From a virus: a stretch of 64,000 nt of DNA. A model generated the notes under the pieces. It did no database searches. It was not told the origin of the DNA and saw nothing but the letters and a program-made list of their open reading frames with translations. Both the position numbers and the translations under genes were made by a program. The stretch covers positions 1-64,000 of IMG/VR virus record IMGVR_UViG_3300045988_098233; one strand, written 5' to 3'. Positions 3,542 to 44,424 of the stretch are shown here, in pieces. Position 1 is the first letter of the stretch, and the number at the start of each line of letters is the position of its first letter.

Positions 3542-6500
3542 TTAATTTTTGTAGAGGCCCAAGTTCCCGGCCCCGTGGTTCAATGCCTGCATGACCTGCG
3601 CAACGGTCAGGCGGTTGGCCGCCTCCGCCCCGATCTGAACGCCGTTCACGCTGTAGCTGTCTCCGTAGTGGTCATAGCTGGTCCGGCTCATCACCGTCTT
3701 TCCCGGCATGGCGCCGCCCCGCTCCGCCGCGCCGTACAGCCACCCAAGCTCACTCATCCGCTTCTGGAAGGTGCTGTCCGCGCTGGGTTCCAACATCTTC
3801 TCCGCCAGCAGCGGCGGGATCACGATCTCGTCCTGACTGGTGGCCTTGATGCCGCCCAGCCCCCGCAGGATGCCGCCGGAATCGTACTTCTTGTACGGGT
3901 CCTTGCCGCCGTACTTATCGTTGATCTTGTTCTGCCGTTCCGATTTCAGCTTGTCGATGGTAGCCTGACTGGCTCCGTTCTTCTCCGCGTTCTTGATGGC
4001 CAGAGAGTAGTCCACGTTGCTGTCATAGCCCTTGCCGGAAGAACCGGAGGAATTGTTTTTGGAGGAAGAAGAACCGCCGCCTGAAGAACCGGAAGAAGAA
4101 TTGCCCTTGGAGGACGAGGAACCGCCCCCGGATGGTTTGCCACCCTTGTTTGGGTCTACCCCACCGTACATGGCGTTGATCTTGTTCTGCCGCTCCGTTT
4201 CCAGCTGCTTGATCACGCCTTCTCCGGCCCCGGACTCCTTGGCCTGCTTGATGGCAAGGTTGTAATCCACGTTCTTGTCATAGCCCGTGTAGTACATCTT
4301 GTTGCCGTCTGCGTCCACCTTGTCATACTTTCCGGAGAGGTCTGCCCGCGCCGCGCCCTGATGGACGTTGATGGCTTTTACCGCATAGCCAAGTTCGTCA
4401 TAGGTGATCACATAGCCGTTTTTCTCAACGGTCTGCCCCGCCAGCTTTTCGTCCCGGCTGCTATCCGGGCCGGTATACTGGCCCTTTTCACCCTTTCCGT
4501 AAACTCTGGTGTCCTTGAAGTTCAGGTTGGCGTCACTTCCGTCCGCCAGCTTCCAGCCGGAGGAACCGGCGGGAATGAACCCTTCGTTCATCTCCGTCTG
4601 CGTCCAGCCGCCGCCCGGATTCTTCGTGTAGTCGAAATGGTAGCCGCCGGTCACGCCGGCCGACCCGTTCACGCCGGGAACCTCTCCGGGCTGACCGGGG
4701 ATCTGCCCGCCGTTCACAACGCCTGCGATATACTGGTTCAGCTTGCCCAGCAGGTTGTTGACCTCCTCCACCTGCTGCCGCATCTTGGGTGTGCCGTTTC
4801 TGGCAATATCGCTGAGAATGTCATCAATGGTCCGGGTGGGTTCCTGCAAACTGTCCGTGATCCGCTTCCACTCGGCTTTCAGGGTGTTGTAGGTTTCTTC
4901 GATCAGGGTTTTCTTGGCTTCCAGTTCGTCAATTTCCCGCTGAAGGGCCAACTCCCGCTCATACTCCGCCAAGTCCTCCTTGGCCTTTTCATAGGCGTCC
5001 TGCGCGGACTTCACGGACGAGGCGTTGGCTTCCCACTCCCACTGCCCGGTTGCGGCGTTGAATACCCGCACCGTCCGTTCCTTCTGGGCTTCCAGCAAGG
5101 CGTTCTGCTTTTCCAGCACCGCCGCCTTCAGCTGTTCCAGTTTCAGTGCTTCGTCCTCGGCCTGCTTGGCGTCCTTCAGCGCCGCGATCTGCTTGTCAAT
5201 GGCGTCAACCTGCTTGTCACGGGCATCCGCCGCCTCTTCCAGCTTTTTGTTAACGGCATCTTCCAGTTCGTCCCAAAGATCCTTTTGCAGTTCTTCGATC
5301 TGCTTGGTGATCTTCCAGTGCTCCGTGGACAGGGCGTTGATGTCCGCCTGACTGGCCCCGATCCGCCGCATATACTCCGCCTGTGCGTGGAGCGCCGCCT
5401 GGATCTGCCGCATCTTGTCGATTTGGTCCGCCGTGCTGTCCCCACGCTCCTGCATGAGGGACAGTTCCGACTTCCGCAGAGATACGATGTCCTTCAGCCG
5501 TTCCAGCTCCGCGTCCTTAGTGGATTTCCCCGTTGACGATGTGGTGGAGGACGTATCCACTGTGGAGGTGGTATCCACCGTCCCGCTGTCCCGCCCGGTG
5601 TCCGTAAACATGGACTTGTAGATCCGGTTCAGAACGATGGCACGGGCTTCGTCATAGGTCTTGGCCTTTCCGGTCTGCAACAGGCCCTTGATGGTCCGCT
5701 CTACATCCTGCGTCTTGGCGGCACCGATCATGCCCACGGAATAGGCGGCCGCCCCGGCCTCGGTGGCCAGCTGCCGCAGCGCCCCGATCTGCTGACTCAG
5801 GTCCAGCTTTTTCTCGTTCAGAACGATCATCCGCTTCACCAGATCGTAAATCTGGTTTCCGGACTTCCCCGCCTGCCGCTGTACCTTCAAAAGCCCTGCC
5901 ACATAGTCGCTCATGGGCTGTGTGGCTTTGTTGACCTGTGCCAAAAATGCCTTCAGCACGTCATAGTCCGCCTGTTGGGCGTCCGTCAGCTTGCCGTTGG
6001 CCTTGATGGCTTCCTCGTAGGCTGCCACCTGTTGTTCCGCCGCCGTTTTCACGGCGTAGAAATCGTCGATCTGGTCCTGTTGGATGCTTCGCCCGGACTG
6101 AAGCTGGTCCGTGTACGCCTTGGCCTTGTCCGCCAGCGTTTCGTAGGTGATCCCCAGCCGTTCCAGGTCTGCCGTGGTGCTGATGGCCTGTCCCGTCACC
6201 AGCCGGAGCTGAGCGATCATTTCCTCCGTGGACTTGAAGGACCGGCCCACAAATTCATCGTAGCCCTTCACACTGCCCATGGACGTGATCGTGGTTCCAC
6301 CGGCTCCGCCCACGGTCTGGGCCTTCTTCTCCGCAATCGCCGTCAGGTGCTTGATCTGCTGTTCCAGTTCGGCGTTTTCCGCTTCCAGCGCCTTCTTTTC
6401 CTCGATCAGCTCCGGCGTTAGATCATGCCATGGAATTGCATAGATTTCTTCCAGCCGCTTCTTGTTTTCTTCTAACTGGGTGGTGTTGGTCTCGATCTCC

Positions 6501-8407
6501 GTGTTCAGCGCGTCAAGGCTTTTCCGGTAGTCCTCCGTCGCCTTCCACACGAGGCTGAACGCCCCTGCCGCCGCCGCGATTGCCAGCAGCCACGGGTTCA
6601 TGGCGATCCCCGCCGCAGGCAGCTTTGTAATTGCCGTCGTGGTCCCCACAGCCGCCGCTTTCAGCGCCAGCATTCCCAAAACCGCAGTCCCGGAAACCGC
6701 CGCGAAATGTCCAACGTCCGTGTTCAGGACTTCCACCGTGCCGATCAGCACGTCCAGCCCGCCCTTAACGGCATCGGTGCTCACCATGCTTTGGATGAAC
6801 TCCGTCCATTCGTTTTTCAGAATGTTTGTCTTGCGGGTCCAACTGTCCAGTGCGTTCTCAATTTCCTTGTCCGCGCTGCCTACGGCGTTGGCGTAGTCCT
6901 TCAGCATGGACTGGTACATATCCCAGTTCTGGATCAGAGCCAGAAGCTGAGAGGTCCGCAGCTTGCCGCCGATGTCGCTGACCATCTCCATCAGCTTTTG
7001 TTCGGTCAGCAGCCCGTCCTTCATGCTCTGGGCAAGGCCCCCGATGGCCTCCATGGGGTCAATGACCTCGCCGGTGGCCTTCGCCGCTTCATACGCAGCC
7101 GGGGCGTACTCCCGGATCACGTCTTTCAATCCGGCGATCTCCCCGGTAGTCCACGTCACGCCCTCGTCGATCTCGGTTTTCGTGTCCCCCACGATGTTCA
7201 GCACCAGTGCCCGGAACGCACGGGCCGCTTCGCTGCCGCTCCGCTGGGTCACGGCGGTGATCGTACCGATTGCCGCCGTCAGTTCATCGATCCCCACATG
7301 GGCCTGTGCCGCCACCGGGGCCACGGTCCCCAAGCCCTCCGCCAGCTTTTCAATGCTGGTGGCGTACTTGTTGTCGATCTCGTTGGCGCCGTCCAGCACC
7401 TTGGTCAATGCGTCAATGTTTCCCTTGTACTGATACGCCGCGTCCACGGACAACAGGAACTGCTGTGCCGTTTCCGCGTTGGTGTCGCCCACTAATTTTG
7501 TCTTGGTGGCCAGCTCCGCCAGCGCGTCCGCCTGTTCGCCGTAACCGGCACGGGCAAACGCCGCCACAGAGTTCAGATATTCGTCCGCCGCCTCGCCGTA
7601 GGCCGATGCCGTCTCATACGCCCGGTCCCGCAGTTCCTCCATCTGCTCTGCTGTAAAGCCAGTTACCTTGCGGACCGTCACCATCTCATCGTCTACGGCC
7701 TTCATGGTGGAAATGGCGTCTCGGAAAGCCCCAATGGTCTTGGAAACGATAGTGCCCACCACTTGCCATTGCAGCATTTTCAGGTAGGCGTTGGTAAAAC
7801 TGTCCCCTAACAGGTTGGTTTTCTCAGTCATCTCCTTCGTGCCCTTCTGGACCTTATCGGAGGTGTTCAAAAACGCTCTTTCAAATACACCGGCACTGTC
7901 CGCAGCGCTCTTGGCGGCATTCCCGATGCCCACCATGCCCTCGATCTGCCGCTGGATCGATGTGGGATTATAAGGGGTGTTCTGCGCTGCTCTGGTCTGC
8001 TGCTGTAAATAGGCGTTGGCCTGCCGGGTGGCTTTCAGTTCTGCGGCCGCGGCTTTCTCCGCCGCTTGGGCCTGCTGTCGGTAGTTCCGGGTCACGGTCT
8101 GCTGGGTCACAGCAAGATCCCCCGTCTCCTTGTTCAGCGTCGCCACCACGCGGGTGGTCTCTCCCAGCCGTGCGGAGAAATCCCGCACCTGCCGCGTGGC
8201 CTGCCCGTTTGCGTCAAAGGTGGTGGAGACCTTCTGCAAGTTCCCCGCCAGCTTCCCGGCGGCATTGGCCGCGCCGTTCAGACCCTGCGCCGTGCCGTTC
8301 AGATTCACCTTTGTGGAAGAAACCGACGCAACCTCCTGCTTCAGCTTTGCGATCTCCGCCCGGACCTCTGTAAAATCGGGTACGCCCTTAAAGATAATTT
8401 TTGCCAT
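3542..8407 (-). CDS. tail tape measure protein (1621 aa)
   Basis: Very long alpha-helical/coiled-coil ORF with a TP901-type TMP core (..NKYATSIEKLAEGLGTVAPVAAQAHVGIDELTAAIGTITAVTQRSGSEAARAFRALVLNI..). Also has internal TM helices and a C-terminal duplicated module with a Ser/Gly linker. Confidence 0.9.
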   Translation of the reverse strand: MAKIIFKGVPDFTEVRAEIAKLKQEVASVSSTKVNLNGTAQGLNGAANAAGKLAGNLQKVSTTFDANGQATRQVRDFSARLGETTRVVATLNKETGDLAVTQQTVTRNYRQQAQAAEKAAAAELKATRQANAYLQQQTRAAQNTPYNPTSIQRQIEGMVGIGNAAKSAADSAGVFERAFLNTSDKVQKGTKEMTEKTNLLGDSFTNAYLKMLQWQVVGTIVSKTIGAFRDAISTMKAVDDEMVTVRKVTGFTAEQMEELRDRAYETASAYGEAADEYLNSVAAFARAGYGEQADALAELATKTKLVGDTNAETAQQFLLSVDAAYQYKGNIDALTKVLDGANEIDNKYATSIEKLAEGLGTVAPVAAQAHVGIDELTAAIGTITAVTQRSGSEAARAFRALVLNIVGDTKTEIDEGVTWTTGEIAGLKDVIREYAPAAYEAAKATGEVIDPMEAIGGLAQSMKDGLLTEQKLMEMVSDIGGKLRTSQLLALIQNWDMYQSMLKDYANAVGSADKEIENALDSWTRKTNILKNEWTEFIQSMVSTDAVKGGLDVLIGTVEVLNTDVGHFAAVSGTAVLGMLALKAAAVGTTTAITKLPAAGIAMNPWLLAIAAAAGAFSLVWKATEDYRKSLDALNTEIETNTTQLEENKKRLEEIYAIPWHDLTPELIEEKKALEAENAELEQQIKHLTAIAEKKAQTVGGAGGTTITSMGSVKGYDEFVGRSFKSTEEMIAQLRLVTGQAISTTADLERLGITYETLADKAKAYTDQLQSGRSIQQDQIDDFYAVKTAAEQQVAAYEEAIKANGKLTDAQQADYDVLKAFLAQVNKATQPMSDYVAGLLKVQRQAGKSGNQIYDLVKRMIVLNEKKLDLSQQIGALRQLATEAGAAAYSVGMIGAAKTQDVERTIKGLLQTGKAKTYDEARAIVLNRIYKSMFTDTGRDSGTVDTTSTVDTSSTTSSTGKSTKDAELERLKDIVSLRKSELSLMQERGDSTADQIDKMRQIQAALHAQAEYMRRIGASQADINALSTEHWKITKQIEELQKDLWDELEDAVNKKLEEAADARDKQVDAIDKQIAALKDAKQAEDEALKLEQLKAAVLEKQNALLEAQKERTVRVFNAATGQWEWEANASSVKSAQDAYEKAKEDLAEYERELALQREIDELEAKKTLIEETYNTLKAEWKRITDSLQEPTRTIDDILSDIARNGTPKMRQQVEEVNNLLGKLNQYIAGVVNGGQIPGQPGEVPGVNGSAGVTGGYHFDYTKNPGGGWTQTEMNEGFIPAGSSGWKLADGSDANLNFKDTRVYGKGEKGQYTGPDSSRDEKLAGQTVEKNGYVITYDELGYAVKAINVHQGAARADLSGKYDKVDADGNKMYYTGYDKNVDYNLAIKQAKESGAGEGVIKQLETERQNKINAMYGGVDPNKGGKPSGGGSSSSKGNSSSGSSGGGSSSSKNNSSGSSGKGYDSNVDYSLAIKNAEKNGASQATIDKLKSERQNKINDKYGGKDPYKKYDSGGILRGLGGIKATSQDEIVIPPLLAEKMLEPSADSTFQKRMSELGWLYGAAERGGAMPGKTVMSRTSYDHYGDSYSVNGVQIGAEAANRLTVAQVMQALNHGAGNLGLYKN

Positions 8408-8429: not shown

Positions 8430-9011
8430 TCAATATCCTTCGTCACCCTCCCGGCCCGTGTAGCCGTTGGCTTCGATCTGTAATTCTGCGTCCTGTTGGT
8501 TCATGGCCCGTACCAGCGTTTCCTCCGCCCGTCCGCTTTCTACCAGTTCCGTGACAAAATTTTCAAAAAACGGTCTGGCCGGGGGTCTCCGGGTCCAGTC
8601 ATAGGGCGGGTCCAGATGCTCAATGCGCCCGATCAGTGTGTCTCCGTTCAACGGGTTTTCCACCTGTTCGCTCTCGCCGCTGGGCTGGTAATCCATGGAA
8701 ACGCTGTCCTCTGTCACCGCAAACTCCGTGTTGCCGTCGATGTCGGCCAAGCCGCCGTATTCTCCCCGCCGGATATATTCCTTTGGGTCGAATTTTTCGT
8801 ATACGTCGCCCTGCACGTGCTCGAAAAGGCATTGGGACAGATCCTCCCGCAGCGTGGGCATGGCCCCCGCCAGCGCCGCCTTGAACCGCTGTTCCAGTGC
8901 CGCCATGTCCTCGTCCAGCCCTGTGATCCTGACAGATGCGCTCCCGCTCATATCCCCGCTCCTTTCCATCATTTTCGTGATCTCACGAAAATGGTCCCAG
9001 GCATACGCCAA
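8430..9011 (-). CDS. putative tail assembly chaperone (193 aa, acidic)
   Basis: Lies between the tail tube candidate and the TMP. No frameshift partner ORF was seen. Confidence 0.4.
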   Translation of the reverse strand: MAYAWDHFREITKMMERSGDMSGSASVRITGLDEDMAALEQRFKAALAGAMPTLREDLSQCLFEHVQGDVYEKFDPKEYIRRGEYGGLADIDGNTEFAVTEDSVSMDYQPSGESEQVENPLNGDTLIGRIEHLDPPYDWTRRPPARPFFENFVTELVESGRAEETLVRAMNQQDAELQIEANGYTGREGDEGY

Positions 9012-9047: not shown

Positions 9048-9126
9048 TCAAAAAGCGGGGCCGACCGCCGGGTTTCCCCGTCAGTCAGCCCCGCTCGGCT
9101 CATCCTATCCAACGCTTAGGATAAGG
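9048..9126 (-). terminator. conserved hairpin (loop UAAGCGUU) plus intrinsic terminator module, copy 1
   Basis: Sense strand reads CCUUAUCC-UAAGCGUU-GGAUAGG, then AUGAGCCG, then a 12-bp stem AGCGGGGCUGAC/GUCGGCCCCGCU followed by UUUUU. Located after the tail tube candidate gene. Confidence 0.55.
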
Positions 9127-9143
9127 CGTTTTTGGTGTGTCCC

Positions 9144-10271
9144 TTACTCGGCGGTGACTTCCAGAACCGCCTGCGCGGTGTACTTGGCCGCCCCCTCGGC
9201 GGGATACTGGATGGCGATGCTCCCGGTGCCCTGAGTACTCCCGGCGGTCACAATGCCGTCCTTGGAGACCGTGGTCCCGGTAGCAGTCCCGGCGGTCACG
9301 GTATACTTCAGCAGGCTTGCGGGAGAGGGCGTCACCAGTTCCCCGTTTTTCATAACCAGCTTGGCATTCACGGGGGCAGTGCCGCTGACGGCCACGCTCA
9401 CCACGCCGCCGATGACGGCGATCCCCGCTACCTCATCGCTTTCCTCGTCGGGAACCAGCACCACGTAGGCGGAAGTGCCCATGCCGCCGCAAGCGTCGCA
9501 CTCGGCGGAGATCACATCAGCGTCCTCGTTGATGGCGCGGCCGGTAATGGTGGTGGTGTCGTAGTTGGACTGGTCGCCGGTGGTGTTGGCCCCTTCGGGG
9601 TTCAGATACAGGCGGGGTACGATCAGGTAGGCCCAGCCCCAGCGGGTGCCCTTGTTCTTGCCGGACACGTTCTGGTATACGGCGATCTGCGCGGTGAAGT
9701 GGACGATGCGGCCATTAAAGGCGCTGTGCACCACGCCCACCTGAGCCGCGGGCTTCCGGGCAAAGTACCACACCTTGTAACTCTTGCCGCTCTCAGCGGT
9801 GAAGCCGGTAATGGCGCCGGTGGCGGGGTCAATGGGATAAGGAACGCCGCCCACAGAGTAGGAGGAAGCCGCGCCCACCTCCTGCACGTAGCAGAAAATG
9901 GAGGAATAGCCGTACTGGGCCACAGGCACCAGCTTACTCACGTCGGCCTTCAGGGAAGTGCCCGTGGCCTCCACCGTCTGACAGACGGGAGAAACGGCGT
10001 TGTAGCTCACGGTGCCGCCCACAGCCATCATCTTGCTCATCAGGTCGAAGTCCGCGCGGGTGAAGTTCACCTGCGTGTCGGAATCGCTTGCAATGATGGT
10101 GGCGATGCCGTTGCCCAGACCGGCCCGCAGAGGGTCGATGTTGCCGGAGAACTGGATGTTACCGGTGGAGAACTTGTCGCTCTGGCTCAGAACCTCGCCG
10201 GTAACAGGGTCCTGAAGCTGTGCGGAGCAAATGCCCTTCGGGTAGAGTCTCTTGTCAGTAAAAGTGATCAT
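9144..10271 (-). CDS. putative major tail (tube) protein, 375 aa
   Basis: Positioned upstream of the chaperone and TMP. Followed by a leaky-looking terminator, as is common for abundant tail tube genes. Confidence 0.5.
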   Translation of the reverse strand: MITFTDKRLYPKGICSAQLQDPVTGEVLSQSDKFSTGNIQFSGNIDPLRAGLGNGIATIIASDSDTQVNFTRADFDLMSKMMAVGGTVSYNAVSPVCQTVEATGTSLKADVSKLVPVAQYGYSSIFCYVQEVGAASSYSVGGVPYPIDPATGAITGFTAESGKSYKVWYFARKPAAQVGVVHSAFNGRIVHFTAQIAVYQNVSGKNKGTRWGWAYLIVPRLYLNPEGANTTGDQSNYDTTTITGRAINEDADVISAECDACGGMGTSAYVVLVPDEESDEVAGIAVIGGVVSVAVSGTAPVNAKLVMKNGELVTPSPASLLKYTVTAGTATGTTVSKDGIVTAGSTQGTGSIAIQYPAEGAAKYTAQAVLEVTAE

Positions 10272-21904: not shown

Positions 21905-23272
21905 TCAGCCGTTCATGTGGCTCAGCATCTCCATGATGCCGCCGCCCTCGCCGCCGTTGGTCTTGGGGTTGTTCCATGCGAAGGAATGCTGCTTGGCGGC
22001 CATTTCCTTCTTGCGCTTCTCGGTCTGTGCCTTGCCGTGGGCGGCCATCAGGTCCAGCACGGCGCGGTCTGCACCGCAGAACTTCCCGTCAGTCTCCATG
22101 GCGGCGAACTCCTCTGCCCGGTCACACAGGCCCGTGGCAGTCTCGGTCATGTCGGCGTCGCCTTCCACAGAGCAGGCCCGGATGTCCTCCAAAGCGCCGT
22201 TCACAGCTTCCTTCACGGCCTCCACCCGGCGCTCATGCTCGGCGGCTTCCATGGTGCGGATCTTTTCCTCCGCTGCTTCCAGACGTGCCTTCAGTGCCTT
22301 CACGTCCTCCGCCTGCTGCCCCTTTGCGGCGCAGGCATAGTCCACGATGTCGCTCACCTCTACCGTAGCCTCCACGCCCTCGCCAAAGGGGAAAGCTGCC
22401 GTGAGATAAGCGGGCTTGATGCGGCTCTCCACCACGGTGCCGTTATCCTCCGCGTTAAAGGCGTAGGTATAAGCGCTGCCGGCAGAGTCCACGAGGCCAA
22501 CGTGCATCCCGTCCTCGCTCAGAGCGACCACGCGGTAACCCTTGAACTTTTCGGACATGGCCTCCATTGCCTTCTTGCTCATGTTGTTCACTCCTTTTCT
22601 CTTGTTCGTTTCTTTGCTTCCCGTTCCGGGGTCCAAAGACGCCGCCCGCAGTTTTAATGTCTTAAACTCTTCCTGCATGGCACTCAGCGCCTTGATCCGC
22701 GCCCCCGGAATTGCCGGCGGCACATCGTCTCCCAACACGGTTACGCCAAGACCTGCCCAATCCGTAATGACCTCGGTCTTGCCCTCCATGTAGGATTTTT
22801 TCGTATCGGTTTCGGCGGAAACATCCATGCGCCCTGTCCGCACGATCTTTTCCACCAATTCCGGTGCGTAAAACTGAAATAACCGGCCCTTTGCCCTGAT
22901 CCACTCGTTCCCGGCCTCTTCCACAATGGAAAAGTCCTTGGGATCGTCGGATAGGGTCCCCACGATGCGCTCCGCCGTTCCGTCCATGAACGTGTAGCCT
23001 TTTTCGCCGGTGTAGGGGTCCCACACCTCTCTCATGTTGTGTCCGTCTCCCACCTTGCGGCCCACATAGGCGCACAGGATGGGCTGTCCCACAAACGTCA
23101 GGTAGTGCTCCCGCATATTGCGGAAATCCCAATGATTTTCATTCAACCCGGAGCGCATGACCCACAGCTCCACGCCGAACTCGTATTCACTGAGCCGCTG
23201 CATGACCCGCAGTTCGCCGGACATTTTTACGTGCTCCGGCGGGGTTCCTCTCGTCCGAAACGGCATGGTCAC
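21905..23272 (-). CDS. putative prohead protease / scaffold fusion (455 aa)
   Basis: Positioned between portal and capsid. The C-terminal half is coiled-coil and Ala/Glu-rich, like scaffolds. The N-terminal globular domain is assigned by synteny only. Confidence 0.45.
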   Translation of the reverse strand: MTMPFRTRGTPPEHVKMSGELRVMQRLSEYEFGVELWVMRSGLNENHWDFRNMREHYLTFVGQPILCAYVGRKVGDGHNMREVWDPYTGEKGYTFMDGTAERIVGTLSDDPKDFSIVEEAGNEWIRAKGRLFQFYAPELVEKIVRTGRMDVSAETDTKKSYMEGKTEVITDWAGLGVTVLGDDVPPAIPGARIKALSAMQEEFKTLKLRAASLDPGTGSKETNKRKGVNNMSKKAMEAMSEKFKGYRVVALSEDGMHVGLVDSAGSAYTYAFNAEDNGTVVESRIKPAYLTAAFPFGEGVEATVEVSDIVDYACAAKGQQAEDVKALKARLEAAEEKIRTMEAAEHERRVEAVKEAVNGALEDIRACSVEGDADMTETATGLCDRAEEFAAMETDGKFCGADRAVLDLMAAHGKAQTEKRKKEMAAKQHSFAWNNPKTNGGEGGGIMEMLSHMNG

Positions 23273-23802
23273 GCCTCCTCTCCGTCAAACAGCTTTTCCA
23301 CCCAGTTGTCATAGCTGGTGGCGCTGCCGTCGGTCTTGTCATACATCTGCCATGCGTAGAGCATGGTCTCGTAGCTTTTGCTGTTCTCCATCTGAAGATT
23401 TTCAAATTCCCTTGCCAGCGGATACAGCCCCACTTCTTCGCTGGTGCCCACGCAGTCCCGCAAGGCATCCTCAATGTCCTCCAACAGCCGGATCACCTCT
23501 AAGAAAACGCCGTCCATGTCCTCCGGCCGCTCCCGGTATTCCGGGGTCTCCGGGTATTCCTGCATCAGGTGCCGCTGGTGAAGAATGTCTCCGATCACGT
23601 CAAATCGCTTGGGCTGTTCGTGGGCCAGACGGTGAATGGCGTCCGCCGTGTGTACCAGTCCAAACTCCACCAGAACCCACTCTTTCAGCGTGTCCAGCCC
23701 CCGTGCGGCGTTCTGGTATGCCGCCGTGGCCCGCCTCGCCGCGTCCCGCAGCGGGGAAAAGCGGGGATTTTCGTAGTGGTAAATGTCCCGCAGCTTTGCC
23801 AT
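23269..23802 (-). CDS. hypothetical phage protein (177 aa from MAKLRDIY)
   Basis: RBS GAGGAGG lies upstream of the ATG at 23802. Confidence 0.5.
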   Translation of the reverse strand: MAKLRDIYHYENPRFSPLRDAARRATAAYQNAARGLDTLKEWVLVEFGLVHTADAIHRLAHEQPKRFDVIGDILHQRHLMQEYPETPEYRERPEDMDGVFLEVIRLLEDIEDALRDCVGTSEEVGLYPLAREFENLQMENSKSYETMLYAWQMYDKTDGSATSYDNWVEKLFDGEEA

Positions 23803-23824
23803 GTGGTTTCCTCCTCTCATGTTG

Positions 23825-23899
23825 AAAAAAAGCGCTGCCCACGCCGGTCATTCCGGCGTCAGCAACGCTTTGCTCCTCCCGCTCACCGCTTAGAGCGGG
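23825..23899 (-). terminator. conserved hairpin (loop UAAGCGGU) plus intrinsic terminator module, copy 2
   Basis: Sense strand reads CCCGCUC-UAAGCGGU-GAGCGGG, then AGGAGCAAAGCG, leading into a 17-bp terminator stem followed by U7. Located directly after the portal gene. Confidence 0.6.
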
Positions 23900-23923
23900 G
23901 TGCTCTGTTCACTTTTTCTTCGG

Positions 23924-25693
23924 CTATTCGCCGTAGGTGTCGATGTCCGCCTCCTGCCCCTCGCTGGTCACGGTGCCGTCCCCCTTGGGTCTACCGCCGG
24001 GGTTCATATCGTGGGCCGCCTGGGGCGGCAGTCCGCTTTCGGACTGCTTGGCGTTGTAGCTGGTCACAAGGGGCAGCCGCTTATCCATGATGCCGCTGGC
24101 CTTGATGGCGTTGGAAATGCTCAGATCGTCCAGCAGGGAAAGATCGTTCATGGCCATGTAGATGATGGTCTGAGGCAGGATGCCGAGGGTCATGCCCTGC
24201 TTGGCCTCCTCCATCCGCTTTTCCTCGGTGGAGAGGGTCCCGAACAAACTGAACCGCCACGAATATTTCAGATTCAGCTTGTCCATAATGGCCGCCATCA
24301 TCCGTTCGTAGCCCCGGTATACGCACTCCGCAAACTTCCCTTCGATCTGCAGGGAGATTTGGGCAATGCCTGCCTTGGGGTCCTCCGTGGTGGGCACGAT
24401 GGCGGACAGCCCTGCCTTGTTCATGGCGTAGCTGTACCCGGCTGCGGAAATCTTGGTGGCGCTGGGTGCTTCTGCCAGCTGGTGCATTTTGATGTTTTCC
24501 ACAGGGGCCGTGAACCAGCCGATCCCGCTGGTGTTGCTCTCTGACAGCATTTGATACCACAGGTACTCAAACAGCCGCCGTCCCGCGTCTGAAAGCCGGT
24601 AATCGTCCTCTGTGCTTGTAATTTCGGACTTATCCTTGTAGGGGATCTCGCCGGTAAACAAGGCGATCAGGGGGTTCTGCACCAGTTCCAGCTGGATTTG
24701 CTCGTACTGGGCCATCTGCACCAGAGAGAGATACAGCCCCGCCAGCGGGGAAATGGCGTTCCGGGATACATCGTCTGCCTCAAAGGTGAAAATCTTGTCC
24801 ACCGGCAGCGTCACCCAGTAGAACCACCGCCCGTTCTGGGAGTATACCTCCGGGTCTCCCGCCAAGCGGCCGCCGGTCTGCTTCCGCCGCTGTTCCAGCA
24901 CGTTCAGGTCCACCCGGTCCCGCGCCGCGAAGATCACCCGCTTCCCCGTGCCCTCCGGTGCCCGCTCCGCCGATGCGTAGAAGTCATCCAGATAGGGCAG
25001 CAGCAGGTCTCCGAACTGCAAGGGGTCCGCCCCTGGCTGCATAAAGTACATTAGGTTCAGCGCCACCGTGTATTTCGACACGTTGTTGAACCCCACGATC
25101 TTTACCCAGTCACTGGGGAGCTGCTGTAAAAAGGCGTGGTTTACCTTGTTGTGGGGCTTGTCCACGCTGATCCGGGGATAGTAGAAAACCTTCCCCTCCT
25201 GCAAGACCTGCCCTGCGATCTCATGGGCCGTTGCCTTCGGGTCCAGCGTTTTCCGCAGCTTGTCCAAAAGCTGCCATTCCCGCAGAAAGTCCTCCCGCTT
25301 CGCTTCTTCCTCTGTGGCGTACTCCGGGGCAATGTAGCTGTGGTAGGTCAGCATTTCCGTGTACACCTTCCGGGTGTGAAACAGGGGATACGCCGTCCAT
25401 TCCAGCGCGTGAGCCACCTGCCGCAAGCCCTGCTCGTTGCCGTCCGGGGCGGTAAGCATTTCCGCCACCTTGTCCTTGCTGTAATTCACCGGCAGGGAGG
25501 AAATGGCCTTTACCCGGCGGTTCTGAATGTAGGGGTTATTCCGGGTGTAGGTGTTGCTGGCCGCCCGCATAAACGCGCCGCTTACGGCGTCCATGGGCAG
25601 GTCGCCGTACTGTGCCGCCAGTTCCCGCAACCTTCCGAATATCTTCGGGTACGAGGCGAACTGCACCGACCTCAATTCAGTTTGCAGGTCCAT
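23924..25693 (-). CDS. portal protein (589 aa)
   Basis: Size and position downstream of the large terminase, with an acidic C-terminal tail. Confidence 0.8.
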   Translation of the reverse strand: MDLQTELRSVQFASYPKIFGRLRELAAQYGDLPMDAVSGAFMRAASNTYTRNNPYIQNRRVKAISSLPVNYSKDKVAEMLTAPDGNEQGLRQVAHALEWTAYPLFHTRKVYTEMLTYHSYIAPEYATEEEAKREDFLREWQLLDKLRKTLDPKATAHEIAGQVLQEGKVFYYPRISVDKPHNKVNHAFLQQLPSDWVKIVGFNNVSKYTVALNLMYFMQPGADPLQFGDLLLPYLDDFYASAERAPEGTGKRVIFAARDRVDLNVLEQRRKQTGGRLAGDPEVYSQNGRWFYWVTLPVDKIFTFEADDVSRNAISPLAGLYLSLVQMAQYEQIQLELVQNPLIALFTGEIPYKDKSEITSTEDDYRLSDAGRRLFEYLWYQMLSESNTSGIGWFTAPVENIKMHQLAEAPSATKISAAGYSYAMNKAGLSAIVPTTEDPKAGIAQISLQIEGKFAECVYRGYERMMAAIMDKLNLKYSWRFSLFGTLSTEEKRMEEAKQGMTLGILPQTIIYMAMNDLSLLDDLSISNAIKASGIMDKRLPLVTSYNAKQSESGLPPQAAHDMNPGGRPKGDGTVTSEGQEADIDTYGE

Positions 25694-26047: not shown

Positions 26048-27700
26048 TCAAAACCTCCGGCCTCCCCGCCGCGCCGTCACCAGCCGTCCGCTGCCTCCGG
26101 TGCTGATAGGCGGTGCCACTTTGTTTTCCTTGAACCGATCCAGCGCCGATGCCCAATCGCTCTTGTTTCTGCCGTGGATCTCCGTCAGCAGCTCATCCCG
26201 CTCGATCAGCTGGGCCAGCCGCAGGGCGTATTTCGTGGCAGACCAGCTATCGCGCTGAATGGCCTTGGAAATGCGCTTCTCGCTCATCCCCGCCCCGCTG
26301 GGCACCAGCTTCAGGTTCTGTATCTGGCCGGACAGCTCCCGGCACTTCTGGTAGGGCTGTGCAAACTGATAATCCCTGTCATCGTCCCGGATGCGGTGCA
26401 GCCGCTTGTATGCCTCCACGCCCTCGTTGGCGTTCAGCGTCAGCAGTTCAACGTTGTGGTGCTCAAACTCCGTCTGCGCGTATTTCAGCATTTCAAAGTC
26501 CGGGTCCGTCACGCCGGTGCCGCCTGCCTTGATGGGGTAGATCACCGGAATCGCTCCCGGCAGCTCCGCCGCCGCATAGGCCGCGTGGTTCTTTACGCAC
26601 AGAGGCGGAAGGCCGTCCCCCAAGTCGGTCATCAAATCTTCCAGCACCCCGCGCCCGTACTGCCAGGAGTCAATGGCGATGTAGGTCTGGCTGCCGTCAT
26701 AACAGAACCGGTTCCAAATGGCCTTCAGCCGCCGCGCCTGGGCCTTGCTCTGGTCCGGCGGGGGCCAGTCGTCAATGTAAACCAGCTGCTTCAAAAAGCG
26801 GTCCCGTTTCAGGTATTCCCGCTGGCGGGTCAGCTTTATCACCACGCAGGCGCATTTGGCGTTCTTTGCCGAATCCTCGTAGGAAACGTCATAGCCCACA
26901 ATGTAAATAACTTCCTCCGGGTCCAGCTTGGGGTGCGGATCCTTGCAGCAGTGCTCCGTCTCCATCACCAGCACCCGCTGGGAATCCGTCAGCACCTCGT
27001 CGGAAAGCACGGGGAACTCGTCCGCGCCGGTGTACCGGCTCTCCATCTCCCGCATCCACCGTTCAATGGTCAGTTTCTCTTTCAGCTTTTGTGCCCAAGA
27101 ATAGGGACGCATCTGCTGTAAAATCACGCATTGCCACGGAATATCCACCGCAAAAGATTTTTCGCCACGCCACATGGCTTTCAATACGGAGCACCGAACC
27201 TGAAAGGCGTGGTTCTGCTTGCGCCCCGCGCTGGTAATGGAATGGCTTTTGTATGCCACAAAGTTGGGGTCCGGTTCTCCGTTTACGTTGTGCCGCAGAC
27301 GAACCGCCGGAAGTACAACGGTGGTGTATTCGTCAAAGTCGAAGGGTGGGTTTTCCTCTTGGGCGAACTCCTCCGCCGTAGCTGCGTGAATGTTATCGCC
27401 ACGCTTGGCCCCAATGTAAAAGGCGCTTCCGCCGTCCGTCTCGATCTTGAAATCGTCCTTGCTCTCCGCGCTGACCCGCCAGTGCTTGGCGAGGGCCGCA
27501 TAGTCATGTTCCAAGGCGCGGAAGGTTTTCCCGCCGATACCCGCCAGCTGTTTTAGTGCCGGTCCCACATACAACACCTGTGTTCCCGGCCACACAACGC
27601 CATTTACCATCTCCGTCAGCAGCTTTGTGTAGGTTTTTGTCATGCCGCGGGTGCCGGTGATCGCAACTTCCTGATTGCGGGCGTAGGCCCGCATCATCAT
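26048..27700 (-). CDS. terL: terminase large subunit (main ORF, 550 aa)
   Basis: Position and size fit. Walker-A-like ITGTRGMTKT near the N-terminus and a C-terminal nuclease-type region. See the in-frame TAG upstream. Confidence 0.85.
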   Translation of the reverse strand: MMMRAYARNQEVAITGTRGMTKTYTKLLTEMVNGVVWPGTQVLYVGPALKQLAGIGGKTFRALEHDYAALAKHWRVSAESKDDFKIETDGGSAFYIGAKRGDNIHAATAEEFAQEENPPFDFDEYTTVVLPAVRLRHNVNGEPDPNFVAYKSHSITSAGRKQNHAFQVRCSVLKAMWRGEKSFAVDIPWQCVILQQMRPYSWAQKLKEKLTIERWMREMESRYTGADEFPVLSDEVLTDSQRVLVMETEHCCKDPHPKLDPEEVIYIVGYDVSYEDSAKNAKCACVVIKLTRQREYLKRDRFLKQLVYIDDWPPPDQSKAQARRLKAIWNRFCYDGSQTYIAIDSWQYGRGVLEDLMTDLGDGLPPLCVKNHAAYAAAELPGAIPVIYPIKAGGTGVTDPDFEMLKYAQTEFEHHNVELLTLNANEGVEAYKRLHRIRDDDRDYQFAQPYQKCRELSGQIQNLKLVPSGAGMSEKRISKAIQRDSWSATKYALRLAQLIERDELLTEIHGRNKSDWASALDRFKENKVAPPISTGGSGRLVTARRGGRRF

Positions 27701-28914: not shown

Positions 28915-29100
28915 TTGACACTCCCCACAGCTAAAGCCGGGGCGATTCTCGGTTCACCGACTACCGCCTCCCGTTTCTGGGGGGGCTTACGCAGTCTCCT
29001 CGAGCGTATAGGTTCGGGCGTGTCCCGCCCTACCTTGTGTAGTGGCTACGCCAACAGGCGCAAGCCCTCATTCAAAATGTTCTTTGCGGCGTTCACGTCC
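28915..29100 (-). ncRNA. putative omega-RNA (reRNA) of TnpB, overlapping the tnpB 3' end and the right IS end
   Basis: Established TnpB biology places the guide RNA scaffold here. The region is GC-rich and hairpin-rich (e.g. GGCGGUAGUCGGUGAACCGAGAAUCGCC). Boundaries are not determinable by eye. Confidence 0.35.
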
Positions 29101-30164
29101 CTATCATGGACAGCACCGCACTTGGGGCAAGTCCATTCCCGGACGGACAGGTCTTTTGTTCCGGGCCACTGTGCGCCGCAAGCGGAGCAAAGCTGACTGG
29201 ACGGAAAGAAACGATCGACCGTGACCACCTGTTTTCCGTACAACGCCGCCTTGTACTCCAACTGCCGCCGGAACTCGCTCCAACTTGCATCAGAGATTGC
29301 CTTTGCCAGTTTGTGGTTCTTGACCATGTTCTTGGGAACTAAGTCCTCAATCGCAATCAAGTCATAAGTTCGCACAAGGATGGTGGACAGTTTATGGAGC
29401 ATATCCTGCCGCTGATTGGCAACGTGTTCGTGGAGCCGTGCTACTTGTATCCTCGCCTTTTCCCGGCGGTTACTGCCCTTTGATTTTCGGGACAACTGCC
29501 GCTGGAGTTTGGCAAGTTTCTTCTGGCTCCGGGTCAGGTATTTATGGTTCGGATACTCTACGCCATCGGAGGTGATAGCAAATGCTTTCAGGCCCATGTC
29601 GATACCGGCCACCGCGCCGGTAGTGGGTAGCAGATTCATCTCCACATCGGCGCAGCATAAAGAAACAAAGTATTTCCCACTGGAAGTGCGGGACACGGTA
29701 GCAGTCAAGATACGACCCTCCACCTTCTTGGAGATACGGCATTTTACCCGCCCCAACTTGGGGAGTCGGACAGCCTTCTCCAAGACCTTTATGTTGGCAT
29801 TAACACATCTGCTTGTATAGCTTTGTTTATAGCTTTTCTTACTCTTGAAACGCGGATAGCCAAACCGGTTGTCTCCCTCTTTGATGCTACGGAAGAAGTT
29901 CTGGAAGGCTTTATCTAAATTCTGCACCGCAGATTGCAGGGCGGTGGAATCCACCTCTTTCAGCCATAGCAGAGTTTTTTTCAGCATTGGAAGGTCGTTT
30001 CTCTGCTGGTAGCGAGAAGGTGAGTGCCCTGTATCCTTGTATTGGCTCTGCCACTGGTCGAGAAAGTAGTTATACACAAACCGACAGCAGCCGAAGGTTT
30101 TATTTATTTGACTCTTTTGCTGTGCGTTCGGATAAATGCGAAATTTATAACTGTATCCATCCAC
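29046..30164 (-). CDS. tnpB: RNA-guided endonuclease TnpB (IS605 OrfB family transposase accessory protein)
   Basis: 372 aa. N-terminus is the typical [31 protein letters not shown]-terminal zinc finger CSACG..CPKCG, with RuvC-like motifs ([22 protein letters not shown]). Confidence 0.9.
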
Positions 30165-30274
30165 CGTCCTCTCCCCCCTTCTGTGAGCGAGATACTATAA
30201 AGATGGTTAGTTTATTTGCTTGTGTATGCGTCTTATAGTCCCGTAGCAAAAGAACGTGTGTACGACGCTTTCCT

Positions 30275-30318
30275 AAAAAAAACAGAGAGTGAAAAGACTT
30301 TATTGCTTCTCACTCTCT
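30275..30318 (-). terminator. rho-independent terminator
   Basis: 9-bp stem AGAGAGUGA/UCACUCUCU followed by U8 on the minus strand, downstream of the HTH gene. Confidence 0.6.
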
Positions 30319-30375
30319 ATTATTTCACAAGGTTTTCCCGATTTGGTAAACTTTAGTAGCCACTTGAAAATTTTT

Positions 30376-30865: not shown

Positions 30866-31087
30866 TTATCCATGCTGCTTCGTCTCCTCCTGAGTCTGGT
30901 TGAGCAGCATGATTTCTTCCAAGGACAATTCGTTGCGAGCAACTGCCAGCACCTGCCTGTCCGTCAGGCCGTACTTGTCTCTAAGTGGCGCCAAAATCGC
31001 ACACATATTCTTCTTGGTGAAGGGGACCTGCCCAGACGTGAGCTTGCTGTAAGCTTTCTGAATTTCAACGGCTACTTCTAACTGCAT
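30866..31087 (-). CDS. hypothetical protein (73 aa)
   Basis: ORF in the early operon. Confidence 0.5.
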   Translation of the reverse strand: MQLEVAVEIQKAYSKLTSGQVPFTKKNMCAILAPLRDKYGLTDRQVLAVARNELSLEEIMLLNQTQEETKQHG

Positions 31088-31161
31088 AGTTTAATATCTC
31101 CTTTCAGTCGATGAGTTGATGCTGCAGCCCACGCAGCGCACTTTCGCAGGAAGCCGGGCGC

Positions 31162-41411: not shown

Positions 41412-42059
41412 TTACAAAATCAAAGTCTGGGCGGGCATCGTCCCCGCCTCCACATGGTCCCAAAAGGCCGTCTCCTGTTCCAGCAGCCATTTCAGGTCCG
41501 CCTCGTGCTCCCGCCGCTCAAAGTCATAGCGGCGCAGTGTGATGTTGCCGGACAGATCATAGAGCGCCGCATAGAGCACGGCGAAGTCATACCCGGTGGC
41601 AAGCAGCTGGTGAAGGATCTGCGTGAAATAGTTCTCAGGAACCTGATCCCGCCATTTCGCCCAGTCAATCCCCCGGCTCACCGTCGAGGTTTTGATCTCC
41701 AAAATACCCTTCCGTCCGGTGTCCGTCTCCGTCAGTTCTCCATCCAGCGTGGCAAAAAGCCATGGGCGGTCGCTCTGGTAGAGAATGTCATAGGCACCGT
41801 AGTAAAGCTCGTAGCCGGGATACTGGGCCATGAAGAAGTCCCGGATGGCCGGTTCCATTCGCCGCCCCAGCTCCACGGCCTCGTTGCCGCCGAGATCAGG
41901 CGCGGCTTGCGCCCCGGTTTTCTCCTTCCACAGCGTCAGCGCCGTTTTCCATGGGCTTCGCCCAATGGCCGCCGCCGCCTCGCTGCCGCCGATGCCACGG
42001 CACCGTCCTGTCAGCCATTGCGGCCGGTCCGGGAAAGTCAGTCGTACCAACTCACCCAT
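41412..42059 (-). CDS. YqaJ-like viral recombinase exonuclease
   Basis: ..GIGGSEAAAAIGRSPWKTALTLWKEKTG.. and ..ILEIKT.. are motifs of lambda-exonuclease/YqaJ-fold proteins. Confidence 0.8.
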   Translation of the reverse strand: MGELVRLTFPDRPQWLTGRCRGIGGSEAAAAIGRSPWKTALTLWKEKTGAQAAPDLGGNEAVELGRRMEPAIRDFFMAQYPGYELYYGAYDILYQSDRPWLFATLDGELTETDTGRKGILEIKTSTVSRGIDWAKWRDQVPENYFTQILHQLLATGYDFAVLYAALYDLSGNITLRRYDFERREHEADLKWLLEQETAFWDHVEAGTMPAQTLIL

Positions 42060-42792
42060 TTTTCAGTTCCTCCCAATACCCCATCACGGTTCTGGCATAA
42101 TCGCTGTGCCCCGGATGGCCGCTGTTGTAGGCCGTCAAGGCGTTCTCTACGTCATACCGGCTCAAAAGCTCCGCCATGTAGTCGCAGGCCACCCGGAAAT
42201 TTCCAAAGGGGTCCATCAGGTCTGTGACCCCCAGCCGCTCCATCCGGGCCTTATGCCACCGGGGCTGTACCTGGCAGTAGCCCCAACTGGCTCCGCCGTC
42301 CCCCTTCACGTTCCGGTAGCCGGTCTCCTTGCGGATGATCGCCAGCATCAGCGTGTACTCCACGCCGCTTTCCTCGCAGGCCGCCCGGAGATAGCTTTGC
42401 AGGTCTCCGTCCAGCGGAACATCCGCCCGGAAGTAGCCGCTGTCAAACAGCGCCGCTTCGATCTTCTCGTTCTCGTAGTCCTCCTGAACCGGCGGGGCTG
42501 TCTCCGGATCCAGCTCCTGCCAGAGGACAAGTGAGGCGTACTCCACCGCCGGTGTCTCGTCCCCGGCCAGCCGTCCCGCCGTCACGGTGGGCGCCTCCGG
42601 CTCCGGCTTCCCGGTCTCCCGCGTCAGCCACAGTGCTGCCAGCACCAGCGCCACAGACACCCACAGCAGAACCGCTCTGCGGATGGCCTTCCGCCTCCGC
42701 TCCGCAGCTTCCCGCCGTGCCACGTGAAGGGCGTTTTCCAAGTGGGCTTCCCACGCGGCCTCCGCCTCGTATTCCTCAAAGGTTTTCATCAA
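42052..42792 (-). CDS. membrane-anchored lytic transglycosylase (SLT domain)
   Basis: N-terminal TM helix (VLLWVSVALVLAALWL) and an SLT-like C-terminus (..AIIRKETGY..WGYCQVQPRWH..). Confidence 0.7.
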   Translation of the reverse strand: MMKTFEEYEAEAAWEAHLENALHVARREAAERRRKAIRRAVLLWVSVALVLAALWLTRETGKPEPEAPTVTAGRLAGDETPAVEYASLVLWQELDPETAPPVQEDYENEKIEAALFDSGYFRADVPLDGDLQSYLRAACEESGVEYTLMLAIIRKETGYRNVKGDGGASWGYCQVQPRWHKARMERLGVTDLMDPFGNFRVACDYMAELLSRYDVENALTAYNSGHPGHSDYARTVMGYWEELKNG

Positions 42793-42811: not shown

Positions 42812-42897
42812 AAAAACAAAAAGCGCCGCCGAATAGACACCGGTCTCCCGGTTCCATCAGCAACGCTCTGCTCCTCTGCCCCAACGCTTAGGGACAG
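42812..42897 (-). terminator. conserved hairpin (loop UAAGCGUU) plus intrinsic terminator module, copy 3
   Basis: Sense strand reads CUGUCCC-UAAGCGUU-GGGGCAG, then AGGAGCAGAGCG, leading into a terminator stem followed by a U tract. Confidence 0.55.
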
Positions 42898-42923
42898 GCA
42901 TCTCATTCACTTTTCCCATAGGC

Positions 42924-43064
42924 TTACTTGATCTCGTCCCGCCGGACGCGGATTACCTTCACACCGTCCTTCACCGGGATCAGCTCCACCCGGTCTCCGT
43001 GGGCCAGTGCCTTTTCAATGGCTTCCAGCGTCTTGGCGCTGACATACTTTGTTCCCTGTATCAT
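42924..43064 (-). CDS. small hypothetical protein (46 aa from MIQGTKY)
   Basis: GAAAGGAG RBS. Confidence 0.4.
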   Translation of the reverse strand: MIQGTKYVSAKTLEAIEKALAHGDRVELIPVKDGVKVIRVRRDEIK

Positions 43065-43622: not shown

Positions 43623-44424
43623 GGTTTGCCCCTCTGGTTTCACAGCTTTTTTCTCCAAGAAACTTGTTCACGAAATAGATCTGCGCTTTTGGGGTTACTT
43701 TGACGGTCTTGCTCACCGTCACCGTCCCGTCCGCATGGGTGATCGCCGTTTCCTTGATAGTGAAAAGGCCCATCTCCATACTCCGCTGCGTGGGCATATT
43801 GTAGTCCGAACCGGAGCGTCTAATGAGATACCCGTTTTCCCGCATCCAGCGGAACAATCTCGTCCCTCCAATGTCCACGCCGTTCTGCCGGAGCAGTTTT
43901 GCCAACTCCCCAACAAGGATAGAGGTGTTGGACGCCGCCACGCTGTCCGCAAACAACACTTTAGGCCGGTTCTCTTCCGCCTTGGCTTCCAGCACCCGGC
44001 GCTTCTGCCGTTCCTCCTTCAAGGTGGTCGCAAGCTGGATGATGTAGTCCGGGTCAGTCAGCGTCCGTTCGATCACGTCCGGCGTCATGTAGGCCCCATG
44101 TTTGCGGATGATGGGGATCACCTCATGCGTAATCCAATGCTTAAACTTCTTCGCATTCGGAAGTTTGCTGGACAATACCAGTGAATAAAGGCCGCTTTCA
44201 TTGATAATCCATCCGCCGCGTTGCCCGAGGTTTAAATTCAAACTCGATAACGATTCGTTATTGAGTTTATCTTCTGCATCCACATGGTCTGATAGCGCCT
44301 TGCTTGGATTTGCATATCCGAGAATTTCTGCCACATCCTTACCTACGAACCAAGGCTCCCCATCCATTTCAATGATCCTGATCTCCCCAAACTCCGGGTT
44401 ATTGAAAATCTGCAATTCATTCAT
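43612..44424 (-). CDS. phage antirepressor (Bro-N plus KilAC/ANT domains)
   Basis: MNELQIFNNPEFGEIRIIEMDGEPWFVGKDVAEILGY..SKALSDHV.. matches Bro-N. The C-terminal half resembles an ANT domain. Confidence 0.8.
   Translation of the reverse strand: MNELQIFNNPEFGEIRIIEMDGEPWFVGKDVAEILGYANPSKALSDHVDAEDKLNNESLSSLNLNLGQRGGWIINESGLYSLVLSSKLPNAKKFKHWITHEVIPIIRKHGAYMTPDVIERTLTDPDYIIQLATTLKEERQKRRVLEAKAEENRPKVLFADSVAASNTSILVGELAKLLRQNGVDIGGTRLFRWMRENGYLIRRSGSDYNMPTQRSMEMGLFTIKETAITHADGTVTVSKTVKVTPKAQIYFVNKFLGEKSCETRGANHGR

Follow-up and report, generated by a model that had tools for sequence, protein, structure and literature searches.

A dual-hairpin RNA module overlapping intrinsic terminators, and its linkage to a 46-amino-acid protein, in temperate phages of gut Clostridia: a candidate antitermination switch

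Positions 1 to 64,000 of the IMG/VR virus record IMGVR_UViG_3300045988_098233 (64,000 nucleotides (nt), the whole stretch being referred to as the window) contain a module of about 80 nt three times, each time in an intergenic gap and on the minus strand, which is the coding strand and carries all genes in this part of the window. Each copy consists of a small hairpin followed by a strong intrinsic terminator. What does such an RNA do between the genes of a phage, and by what could it be read? A preliminary description of the DNA had proposed a structured RNA module fused to a terminator and had suggested that an alternative anti-terminator pairing, or a phage RNA-binding factor in the manner of lambda N and boxB, might act on it. 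Here, we describe the anatomy of the module, a second hairpin that competes with the terminator and the linkage of the module to a gene encoding a protein of 46 amino acids (aa). On balance we consider it probable that the entire chain holds, namely that the module is a protein-dependent antitermination switch with a logic like that of the ANTAR regulators and that it is run by the 46-aa protein.

The three copies are located as follows:

23823-23902, minus strand: copy A, between the portal gene (23924-25693; phrog_2739 match, E = 9.6e-26) and an open reading frame (ORF) at 23269-23820
9049-9128, minus strand: copy B, between a 375-aa ORF (9144-10271) and an ORF at 8430-9011; the tape-measure gene (3542-8407) lies about 650 nt downstream
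42813-42900, minus strand: copy C, just upstream of the SLT-domain gene (42052-42792; PF01464)

The order of elements is the same in every copy: a hairpin of 7 base pairs (bp), termed P1, with its loop, a stretch A-N-GAGC-M-R-AGCG, a long GC-rich stem and a U tract. The P1 stems are wholly different among the copies, being CCCGCUC/GAGCGGG in A, CUUAUCC/GGAUAGG in B and CUGUCCC/GGGGCAG in C, and yet pairing is kept; the loop UAAGCG(G/U)U is common to all three. The stretch 3′ of P1, which reads A(G/U)GAGC(A/C)(A/G)AGCG in the window, continues into the long stem and the U tract. In these respects, as well as in the sense orientation and intergenic position of the modules, the preliminary description was borne out. 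It had also given the stems of A and C correctly, but the 5′ arm of copy B had been taken one base too long, the true stem having 7 bp as written above. The upper part of the terminator likewise has sequence common to the copies. Judged by sequence, all three are intrinsic terminators, with a GC-rich stem-loop, a direct run of 5-7 U, a position on the coding strand and a location in an intergenic gap. A scan for hairpins plus U tracts ranked the three modules as the strongest intrinsic terminators on the phage coding strand, with a hairpin free energy (dG) of -27 to -36 kcal/mol. The individual elements are:

23878..23899, minus strand: P1 of copy A, with the 5′ arm at 23899-23893, the loop UAAGCGGU at 23892-23885 and the 3′ arm at 23884-23878
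23825..23869, minus strand: intrinsic terminator of copy A, with the stem-loop at 23869-23831 and the U tract at 23831-23825; dG -29.6
9104..9125, minus strand: P1 of copy B, with the 5′ arm at 9125-9119, the loop UAAGCGUU at 9118-9111 and the 3′ arm at 9110-9104
9050..9095, minus strand: intrinsic terminator of copy B, with the stem-loop at 9095-9054 and the U tract at 9054-9050; dG -36.1
42876..42897, minus strand: P1 of copy C, with the 5′ arm at 42897-42891, the loop UAAGCGUU at 42890-42883 and the 3′ arm at 42882-42876
42818..42867, minus strand: intrinsic terminator of copy C, with the stem-loop at 42867-42822 and the U tract at 42822-42818; dG -27.5

The RNA motif is directly evident from several scans. 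The pattern TAAGCGKT-N7-ANGAGCNNAGCG was found exactly three times with 0 mismatches in the window, each time on the minus strand, while chance would yield only 0.32 matches even with 3 mismatches permitted. A covariance model scored the three copies at 68-70 bits, compared to 8.8 bits for the next best score in the window. Each copy was also far more stable in its fold than shuffled sequences (z = -5.7 to -7.1), none of 200 shuffles being as stable. Homologues from other phages showed covariation, in agreement with the proposal of a structured RNA fused to a terminator; the counts given below refer to 66 distinct homologous sequences. P1 was paired in 98.1% of cases, with compensatory changes at all 7 pairs, and its loop and the linker that follows were nearly invariant. 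P1 is a real structure.

Variation in P1 was also seen at the population level. Among near-identical phages (loci L002, L019, L022 and others), one pair of the copy C P1 varies between U.G, C-G and U-A, giving the compensatory series CCUGUCCC/GGGGCAG, CCUGCCCC/GGGGCAG and CCUGUCCC/GGGACAG.

The conserved stretch after P1 contains a second hairpin, P2, which had not been part of the earlier proposal. In every homologue this stretch can fold into the 4-bp hairpin AGCM[RAGCGK]KGCU, whose 5′ half is the conserved GAGCMRAGCG sequence and whose hexaloop matches the inner six nucleotides of the P1 loop, U[AAGCGK]U. The linker between P1 and P2 is always exactly 3 nt long and its first nucleotide is an invariant A, and the spacing between the two loops is fixed at 15 nt. 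In two cases, locus L139 (3308-3377) and the second site of the Flavonifractor phage Chenonceau, P2 carries a full 8-nt loop of the P1 type, UAAGCGGU or UAAGUGGU. In the window, P2 is located as follows:

23861..23874, minus strand: P2 of copy A, AGCA at 23874-23871, hexaloop AAGCGU at 23870-23865, UGCU at 23864-23861; it overlaps the terminator 5′ arm
9087..9100, minus strand: P2 of copy B, AGCC at 9100-9097, hexaloop GAGCGG at 9096-9091, GGCU at 9090-9087
42859..42872, minus strand: P2 of copy C, AGCA at 42872-42869, hexaloop GAGCGU at 42868-42863, UGCU at 42862-42859

P2 was paired in 98.9% of cases, and compensatory changes occurred at three of its four pairs. The states of the four pairs in the 66 sequences were:

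P2 pair 1: AU 46, GC 19, GU 1
P2 pair 2: GC 25, GU 15, AU 13, CG 10, UA 3
P2 pair 3: CG 66
P2 pair 4: CG 58, AU 5, unpaired 3

A further state of pair 4, G-C, was found in MT835520. In these counts, which cover P1 as well as P2, the covariation score was not attained by any of 500 column shuffles, and pairing fell to 30-47% once the partner columns were slid by 1-3 positions. At least eight types of P2 5′ arm exist (AGCC, AGCA, GGCC, AACC, ACCC, GACC, GUCC and GCCC), each combined with a matching 3′ arm. P2 is a real alternative structure.

The loop and the 3′ arm of P2 form the base of the terminator 5′ arm, an overlap that can be read directly from the positions given above, and P2 and the terminator are therefore mutually exclusive. 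Because the P2 3′ arm pairs in the terminator as well, the covariation extends to three strands, as expected of a switch. The terminator makes no use of the P2 5′ arm, which covaries nevertheless; this is the signature of an alternative anti-terminator fold. Such a fold had been anticipated in the preliminary description and is implied by the anatomy, but the pairing put forward at that time, between the P1 loop and the CGCUU of the terminator 3′ arm, is not what covaries; it is P2 that competes. The recurrence of AGCG, from which the pairing had been deduced, is explained by P2, which displays the same hexaloop as P1. According to fold predictions, P2 alone contributes only -2.2 to -5.3 kcal/mol, and forcing P1 and P2 to form together costs 15-20 kcal/mol relative to the terminator fold, although the predicted fold of the nascent 46-nt transcript includes P2. 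With this cost and with P2 this weak, termination would be the default, and something must hold P2 closed for read-through to occur.

A candidate for this role is encoded directly beside copy C:

42924-43064, minus strand: gene of the 46-aa protein, product MIQGTKYVSAKTLEAIEKALAHGDRVELIPVKDGVKVIRVRRDEIK; ribosome-binding site AAAGGAG; calculated isoelectric point 9.6

The stop codon of this gene lies 26 nt upstream of P1 of copy C. When the six-frame ORFs of the window were compared with divergent motif-bearing phages by tblastn, the 46-aa ORF was the only one common to them, with 24 loci as against 3 for the next best ORF. The linkage was directly observed in both directions. Starting from the motif, a hidden Markov model (HMM) of the family was run on 33 motif-bearing sequences and in 31 of them located the gene upstream of the motif and on its strand; the remaining two are truncated, with less than 250 nt upstream, so that the informative count is 31/31. 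Starting from the protein alone, 37 of the 39 viral loci fetched contained the motif downstream on the same strand, at a distance of 9-1487 nt (median 210 nt). The same genomes contain further copies of the motif that no gene accompanies, namely copies A and B of the window and copies in L120, L132 and L220 (Chenonceau), and one gene accompanied by extra gene-less motif copies is the arrangement predicted by a trans-acting factor with several targets. On this genomic evidence the 46-aa protein is a candidate trans-acting factor.

The protein belongs to a large family, which at 50% identity comprises 456 clusters (E <= 0.001). Among the best 150 of the 456 clusters, all members have 34-129 aa and none is fused to a larger domain; the core GxRVELIPVKDGVK..R.E.K is invariant. 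The AlphaFold2 model of the 46-aa protein consists of one helix followed by a beta hairpin (pLDDT 88). The family has no match in Pfam or NCBIfam and in PHROGs yielded only a weak match to phrog_29211, an entry without an assigned function. A sequence profile retrieved nothing from the PDB and Foldseek nothing below E = 0.7, and the matches in BFVD were exclusively uncharacterised gut Siphoviridae proteins. Probes with CAT, CsrA, AbrB and MazE revealed no similarity to the small protein or to the ORFs of the window.

The distribution of gene and motif extends well beyond the window. An exact-pattern scan of IMG/VR returned at least 115 loci, about a third of which are chance matches without a P1 stem; among the matches listed are many close relatives of this phage with the identical three sites, and also unrelated phages of about 39% to 66% GC with the same architecture. 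A scan with one genome per species detected the motif in 21 further loci, three more matches being due to chance. The 21 loci derive from Ruminococcus, Oscillospiraceae, Oscillibacter, Acutalibacter, Lachnospiraceae and other Clostridia assemblies, and all three sites are present in contig CALFXG010000098.1 of a metagenome-assembled genome. The occurrence of the motif in Clostridia assemblies indicates that the window represents a prophage, or a phage, of a gut Clostridia host. The module together with the 46-aa protein is widespread in temperate phages of gut Clostridia. Chenonceau, a cultured phage that resides as a prophage in F. plautii YL31 of the OMM12 consortium, has both at the following positions:

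24619-24753: Chenonceau small gene (WAK79802)
26222-26306: Chenonceau motif, first site
31067-31141: Chenonceau motif, second site

The second Chenonceau site is a weaker copy (27.6 bits) in which both loops read UAAGUGGU. It lies in the tail-chaperone region before the tape-measure gene, and this is the relative position of copy B in the window. The location of the gene-plus-motif unit differs among phages:

This phage: early operon
L014 group: between the prohead protease gene and the next gene, probably the major capsid gene
Other phages: after an HK97 gp10-like gene
Chenonceau: small regulatory island that precedes the scaffold and major head genes

Multiple units were also encountered. 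Two complete modules stand in tandem directly after the small gene in L047 (6556-6706), L033 (1107-1287, equivalent to L120 761-941) and L127 (2962-3185), and L139 (2005-3561) contains two small-gene paralogues, each followed by its own module.

How might the module work? By default, the nascent RNA would fold P1 and subsequently the very stable terminator, and RNA polymerase would stop. P1 would form first and present one hexaloop, and P2 would form transiently and present a second, identical hexaloop 15 nt further. The early transcript, which probably starts at the promoter-like site at 44789-44761 and would end at copy C, would allow the 46-aa protein to be translated and to accumulate. We infer that the protein, as an oligomer and probably as a dimer, binds both RAGCGK hexaloops on P1 and P2. 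P2 would thereby be held closed while the terminator 3′ arm is transcribed, and some 8-9 nt at the foot of the terminator 5′ arm would be sequestered with it; formation of the terminator beside the U tract would then be prevented, and transcription would read through. The direction of this effect, read-through upon binding, is likewise our interpretation of the RNA anatomy. Read-through at copy C would give access to the SLT gene, a YqaJ-type recombinase gene and the recombination and replication genes downstream, at copy A to the genes after the portal gene, and at copy B first to the genes that shortly precede the tape-measure gene and presumably encode tail-assembly chaperones, then to that gene itself and to the genes of the distal tail. 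As the terminated transcript would be the source of the protein, the switch would delay or gate expression downstream, and in a lysogen the same terminators would insulate the late genes.

Divergent promoter-like sites were noticed at 44657-44789, with TTGACA-17-TACTAT on the minus strand and TTGACT-17-TATGAT with a TG extension on the plus strand. They lie between a Cro-like helix-turn-helix gene (44417-44629, minus strand) and a 172-aa ORF (44850-45368, plus strand). This region is the probable immunity switch and the probable start of the early operon holding the small gene and copy C.

Comparison with known systems places the proposed switch nearest to the ANTAR regulators (EutV, NasR and AmiR) on their dual-hexaloop targets, which are the closest working analogy, although the module is not a member of that family. 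In ANTAR targets the hexaloops have a conserved A at position 1 and a G at position 4, and a dimeric protein reads both loops (PMC8934654), as would be expected here. The module shares with them the tandem hairpins with equal hexaloops, the short fixed linker, the weak second hairpin overlapping the terminator 5′ arm, and the presence of the element at several terminators per cluster, like the four in the eut operon. It differs in its loops, RAGCGK, whose conserved nucleotides are A2, G3 and G5 (rare variants occur at positions 3 and 4), and in the P1 loop of 8 nt, which is possibly closed by a U.U pair. The linked protein differs as well, being 46 aa long and predicted to form a helix and a beta hairpin instead of a three-helix bundle with a sensor domain, and no signal-sensing module is evident here.

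Lambda N resembles the 46-aa protein in being a small basic phage protein of the early operon, encoded upstream of the first terminator and expected to read a hairpin loop for read-through into delayed genes. However, boxB, which boxA precedes, has a 5-bp stem with a GNRA-like pentaloop, compared to an 8-nt loop on 7 bp in P1 and a hexaloop on 4 bp in P2 (boxA was not searched for), and N is a disordered arginine-rich peptide whereas the 46-aa protein is predicted to be folded. Moreover, lambda nut is present once per operon and acts processively with Nus factors, while the present element is fused to and overlaps each terminator. A phage RNA-binding factor, as the preliminary description had supposed, is still the most likely ligand, but the analogy with N and boxB is a loose one since the element overlaps every regulated terminator; by analogy, this placement suggests a local, passive logic of the ANTAR kind. 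With BglG, SacY and LicT the module has in common a protein-stabilised antiterminator hairpin overlapping the terminator 5′ arm, with termination as default. Their ribonucleic antiterminator (RAT) target, however, is a single imperfect hairpin of about 29 nt, and these proteins carry CAT RNA-binding (CAT_RBD) and PRD domains; a phmmer search for the CAT domain with LicT, SacY and BglG sequences found nothing in the ORFs of the window (best E = 0.99). HK022 put, EAR and conAn are also phage or mobile-element RNAs of two stem-loops that suppress termination, but they act on RNA polymerase from a position upstream of the terminators without overlapping them, and put needs no dedicated protein. 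The guanidine-II (mini-ykkC) RNA has ACGR tetraloops kissing through C-G, in contrast to the RAGCGK hexaloops or 8-nt loops found here. At gathering thresholds, scanning the window with Rfam 15 matched only tRNAs, and a permissive scan of 23700-24000 gave only chance-level matches (at most 16 bits). A search of the literature available retrieved no described phage dual-hairpin antiterminator, nor this motif or protein family. The principle, a protein-stabilised antiterminator hairpin, is known; the RNA motif and the protein family are new.

Can the observations be accommodated otherwise? A host factor, either a host ANTAR-domain regulator or another RNA-binding protein, might read the dual-hairpin switch, with the small gene as a mere neighbour. 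Two tandem hairpins, the second overlapping the terminator, do fit ANTAR targets (PMC8934654), and the small protein has no detectable known RNA-binding domain. Nevertheless, the loops break the A1/G4 rule, and neither the window nor 221 loci (~2 Mb) yielded an ANTAR domain (PF03861): an HMM derived from five solved-structure segments of this domain (EutV, NasR, Rv1626, 6hmj and AmiR) gave nothing better than E = 0.65 in the six-frame ORFs of the window and all fetched loci. In addition, a motif that accompanies the small gene through phages of such different GC contents, at the frequencies reported above, is a linkage that the host-factor model does not predict, and we regard this explanation as unlikely. 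Alternatively, the modules might be ordinary terminators, constitutive or partial, that a hairpin upstream stabilises; they would then fix the proportion of upstream to downstream gene products and insulate the prophage, with gene and terminator forming a mobile cassette that was copied. The great strength of the terminators and a default fold predicted to terminate speak for this, as do the shared upper-terminator sequence, which suggests duplication, and the different places of the gene-plus-motif unit in different phages. What such terminators leave unexplained are the invariant loops, the exact 3-nt linker and the fact that the terminator 5′ arm covaries with the P2 5′ arm, for which a plain terminator has no use; a strong unregulated stop directly upstream of the scaffold and major capsid genes, as in the L014 group and Chenonceau, would moreover be harmful. 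This possibility therefore appears improbable to us.

The protein could also bind the module with another outcome, such as enhanced termination, protection or processing of the 3′ end via P1, or translational control of the next gene. It would be in line with this that the P1 loop is exposed and the P2 loop buried in the terminated RNA, and that the competing hairpin at the second Chenonceau site encloses a ribosome-binding site and is not a clear U-tract terminator. But 3′-end protection requires neither a conserved P2 nor its exclusion of the terminator, and enhancement would act on a termination that is already the strongly favoured default by prediction, which makes an outcome of this type improbable as well. 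Least credible, and taken jointly very improbable, are the mechanisms in which the RNA acts through its own loops: the P1 loop pairing to the terminator 3′ arm, a small-ligand riboswitch with kissing loops of the guanidine-II kind, or a protein-free put-like RNA. In most copies AAGCG is indeed complementary to the CGCUU preceding the U tract, a count to be read with the fact that the minimum free energy folds extend into the U tract, and the two equal loops do have a self-complementary GC. However, where the base of the terminator differs, as in L119, L118 and L033:1107-1186 (P2 loop GAGAGG, 3′ arm CCUCU) and in L086 (3′ arm AGCCCC), the P1 loop has not changed with it, and in L119, L118 and L086 it still reads UAAGCGKU, so that the originally proposed pairing is not supported. 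The variants with GAG in place of GCG (L120:5294-5374 and L183) abolish the self-complementary GC, a processive put-like element need not sit on and overlap every terminator, and none of the three accounts for the P2 5′-arm covariation or for the linkage to a protein.

Several points weigh against the protein-dependent antitermination switch that we favour. P2 has only 4 bp, and the covariation counts derive from model-fitted alignments, although the region is ungapped and of fixed length. The 46-aa protein shows no detectable RNA-binding relative in Pfam, NCBIfam or the PDB, by sequence or by fold, and its target could instead be RNA polymerase, the stability of RNA, or DNA; as both the protein core and the loops are nearly invariant, there is no usable specificity covariation between them. 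L199 and L202 (4001-8117) encode a typical family member with no motif within 4 kb downstream; the two are identical over the gene and the ~500 nt read and are the only loci in which the gene is not followed by the motif. At its second site, Chenonceau has P1 and P2, but a canonical U-tract terminator is missing; the hairpin competing with P2 encloses the ribosome-binding site of the next gene (GAGAGGAGG), and some motif copies may act on translation. Finally, the gene with its own terminator could be read as a mobile gene-plus-terminator cassette.

Other features of the window were recorded alongside the module:

29046-30164, minus strand: 372-aa TnpB/IS605 OrfB protein with a Cas12f1-like TNB domain (PF07282 1.8e-27, PF01385 2.7e-26, PF12323 1.8e-19), encoded between phage regulatory and packaging genes
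30165-30375: AT-rich gap of about 210 nt upstream of the TnpB gene, with a strong ordinary terminator near 30282 (dG -18.9) that has no P1 or P2
32060-32560, minus strand: 166-aa ORF that weakly matches the Mom family (PF25680, E = 3e-5, short of the curated cut-off)
61915-61988, plus strand: tRNA-Gly(CCC)
62565-62633, plus strand: tRNA-Gln(UUG)
62777-62851, plus strand: third tRNA-like sequence, detected by Rfam alone (51 bits) and missed by ARAGORN

The TnpB region looks like an IS200/605-type insertion in the phage, the tRNA region is probably host flank or a prophage attachment region, and the 166-aa ORF may have a DNA-modification function.

In its most general form, our proposal is that a stand-alone protein family of about 45 aa acts as an oligomer which reads two identical hexaloops and switches off dedicated intrinsic terminators gating delayed-early, capsid and tail genes. 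Such a family would be widespread and previously unrecognised, convergent with but unrelated to ANTAR, and much smaller than the ANTAR and BglG/LicT-type regulators; in this general form we hold the case to be evenly balanced. Since the cultured phage Chenonceau carries both gene and motif, the proposal is directly testable. If it is true, a new RNA motif would be defined and a function given to a large orphan family of small phage proteins, and the 46-aa protein with its 80-nt RNA would offer a compact, orthogonal switch of transcription with which anaerobic Firmicutes could be engineered. The ANTAR solution, equal loops of which the second competes with the terminator, would have arisen independently with a minimal protein. 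Gene regulation in phages of the dominant gut Clostridia (hosts Oscillospiraceae, Ruminococcus, Flavonifractor and Lachnospiraceae) is almost unstudied, and the switch, if true, would explain the timing or insulation of capsid and tail gene expression in these phages.

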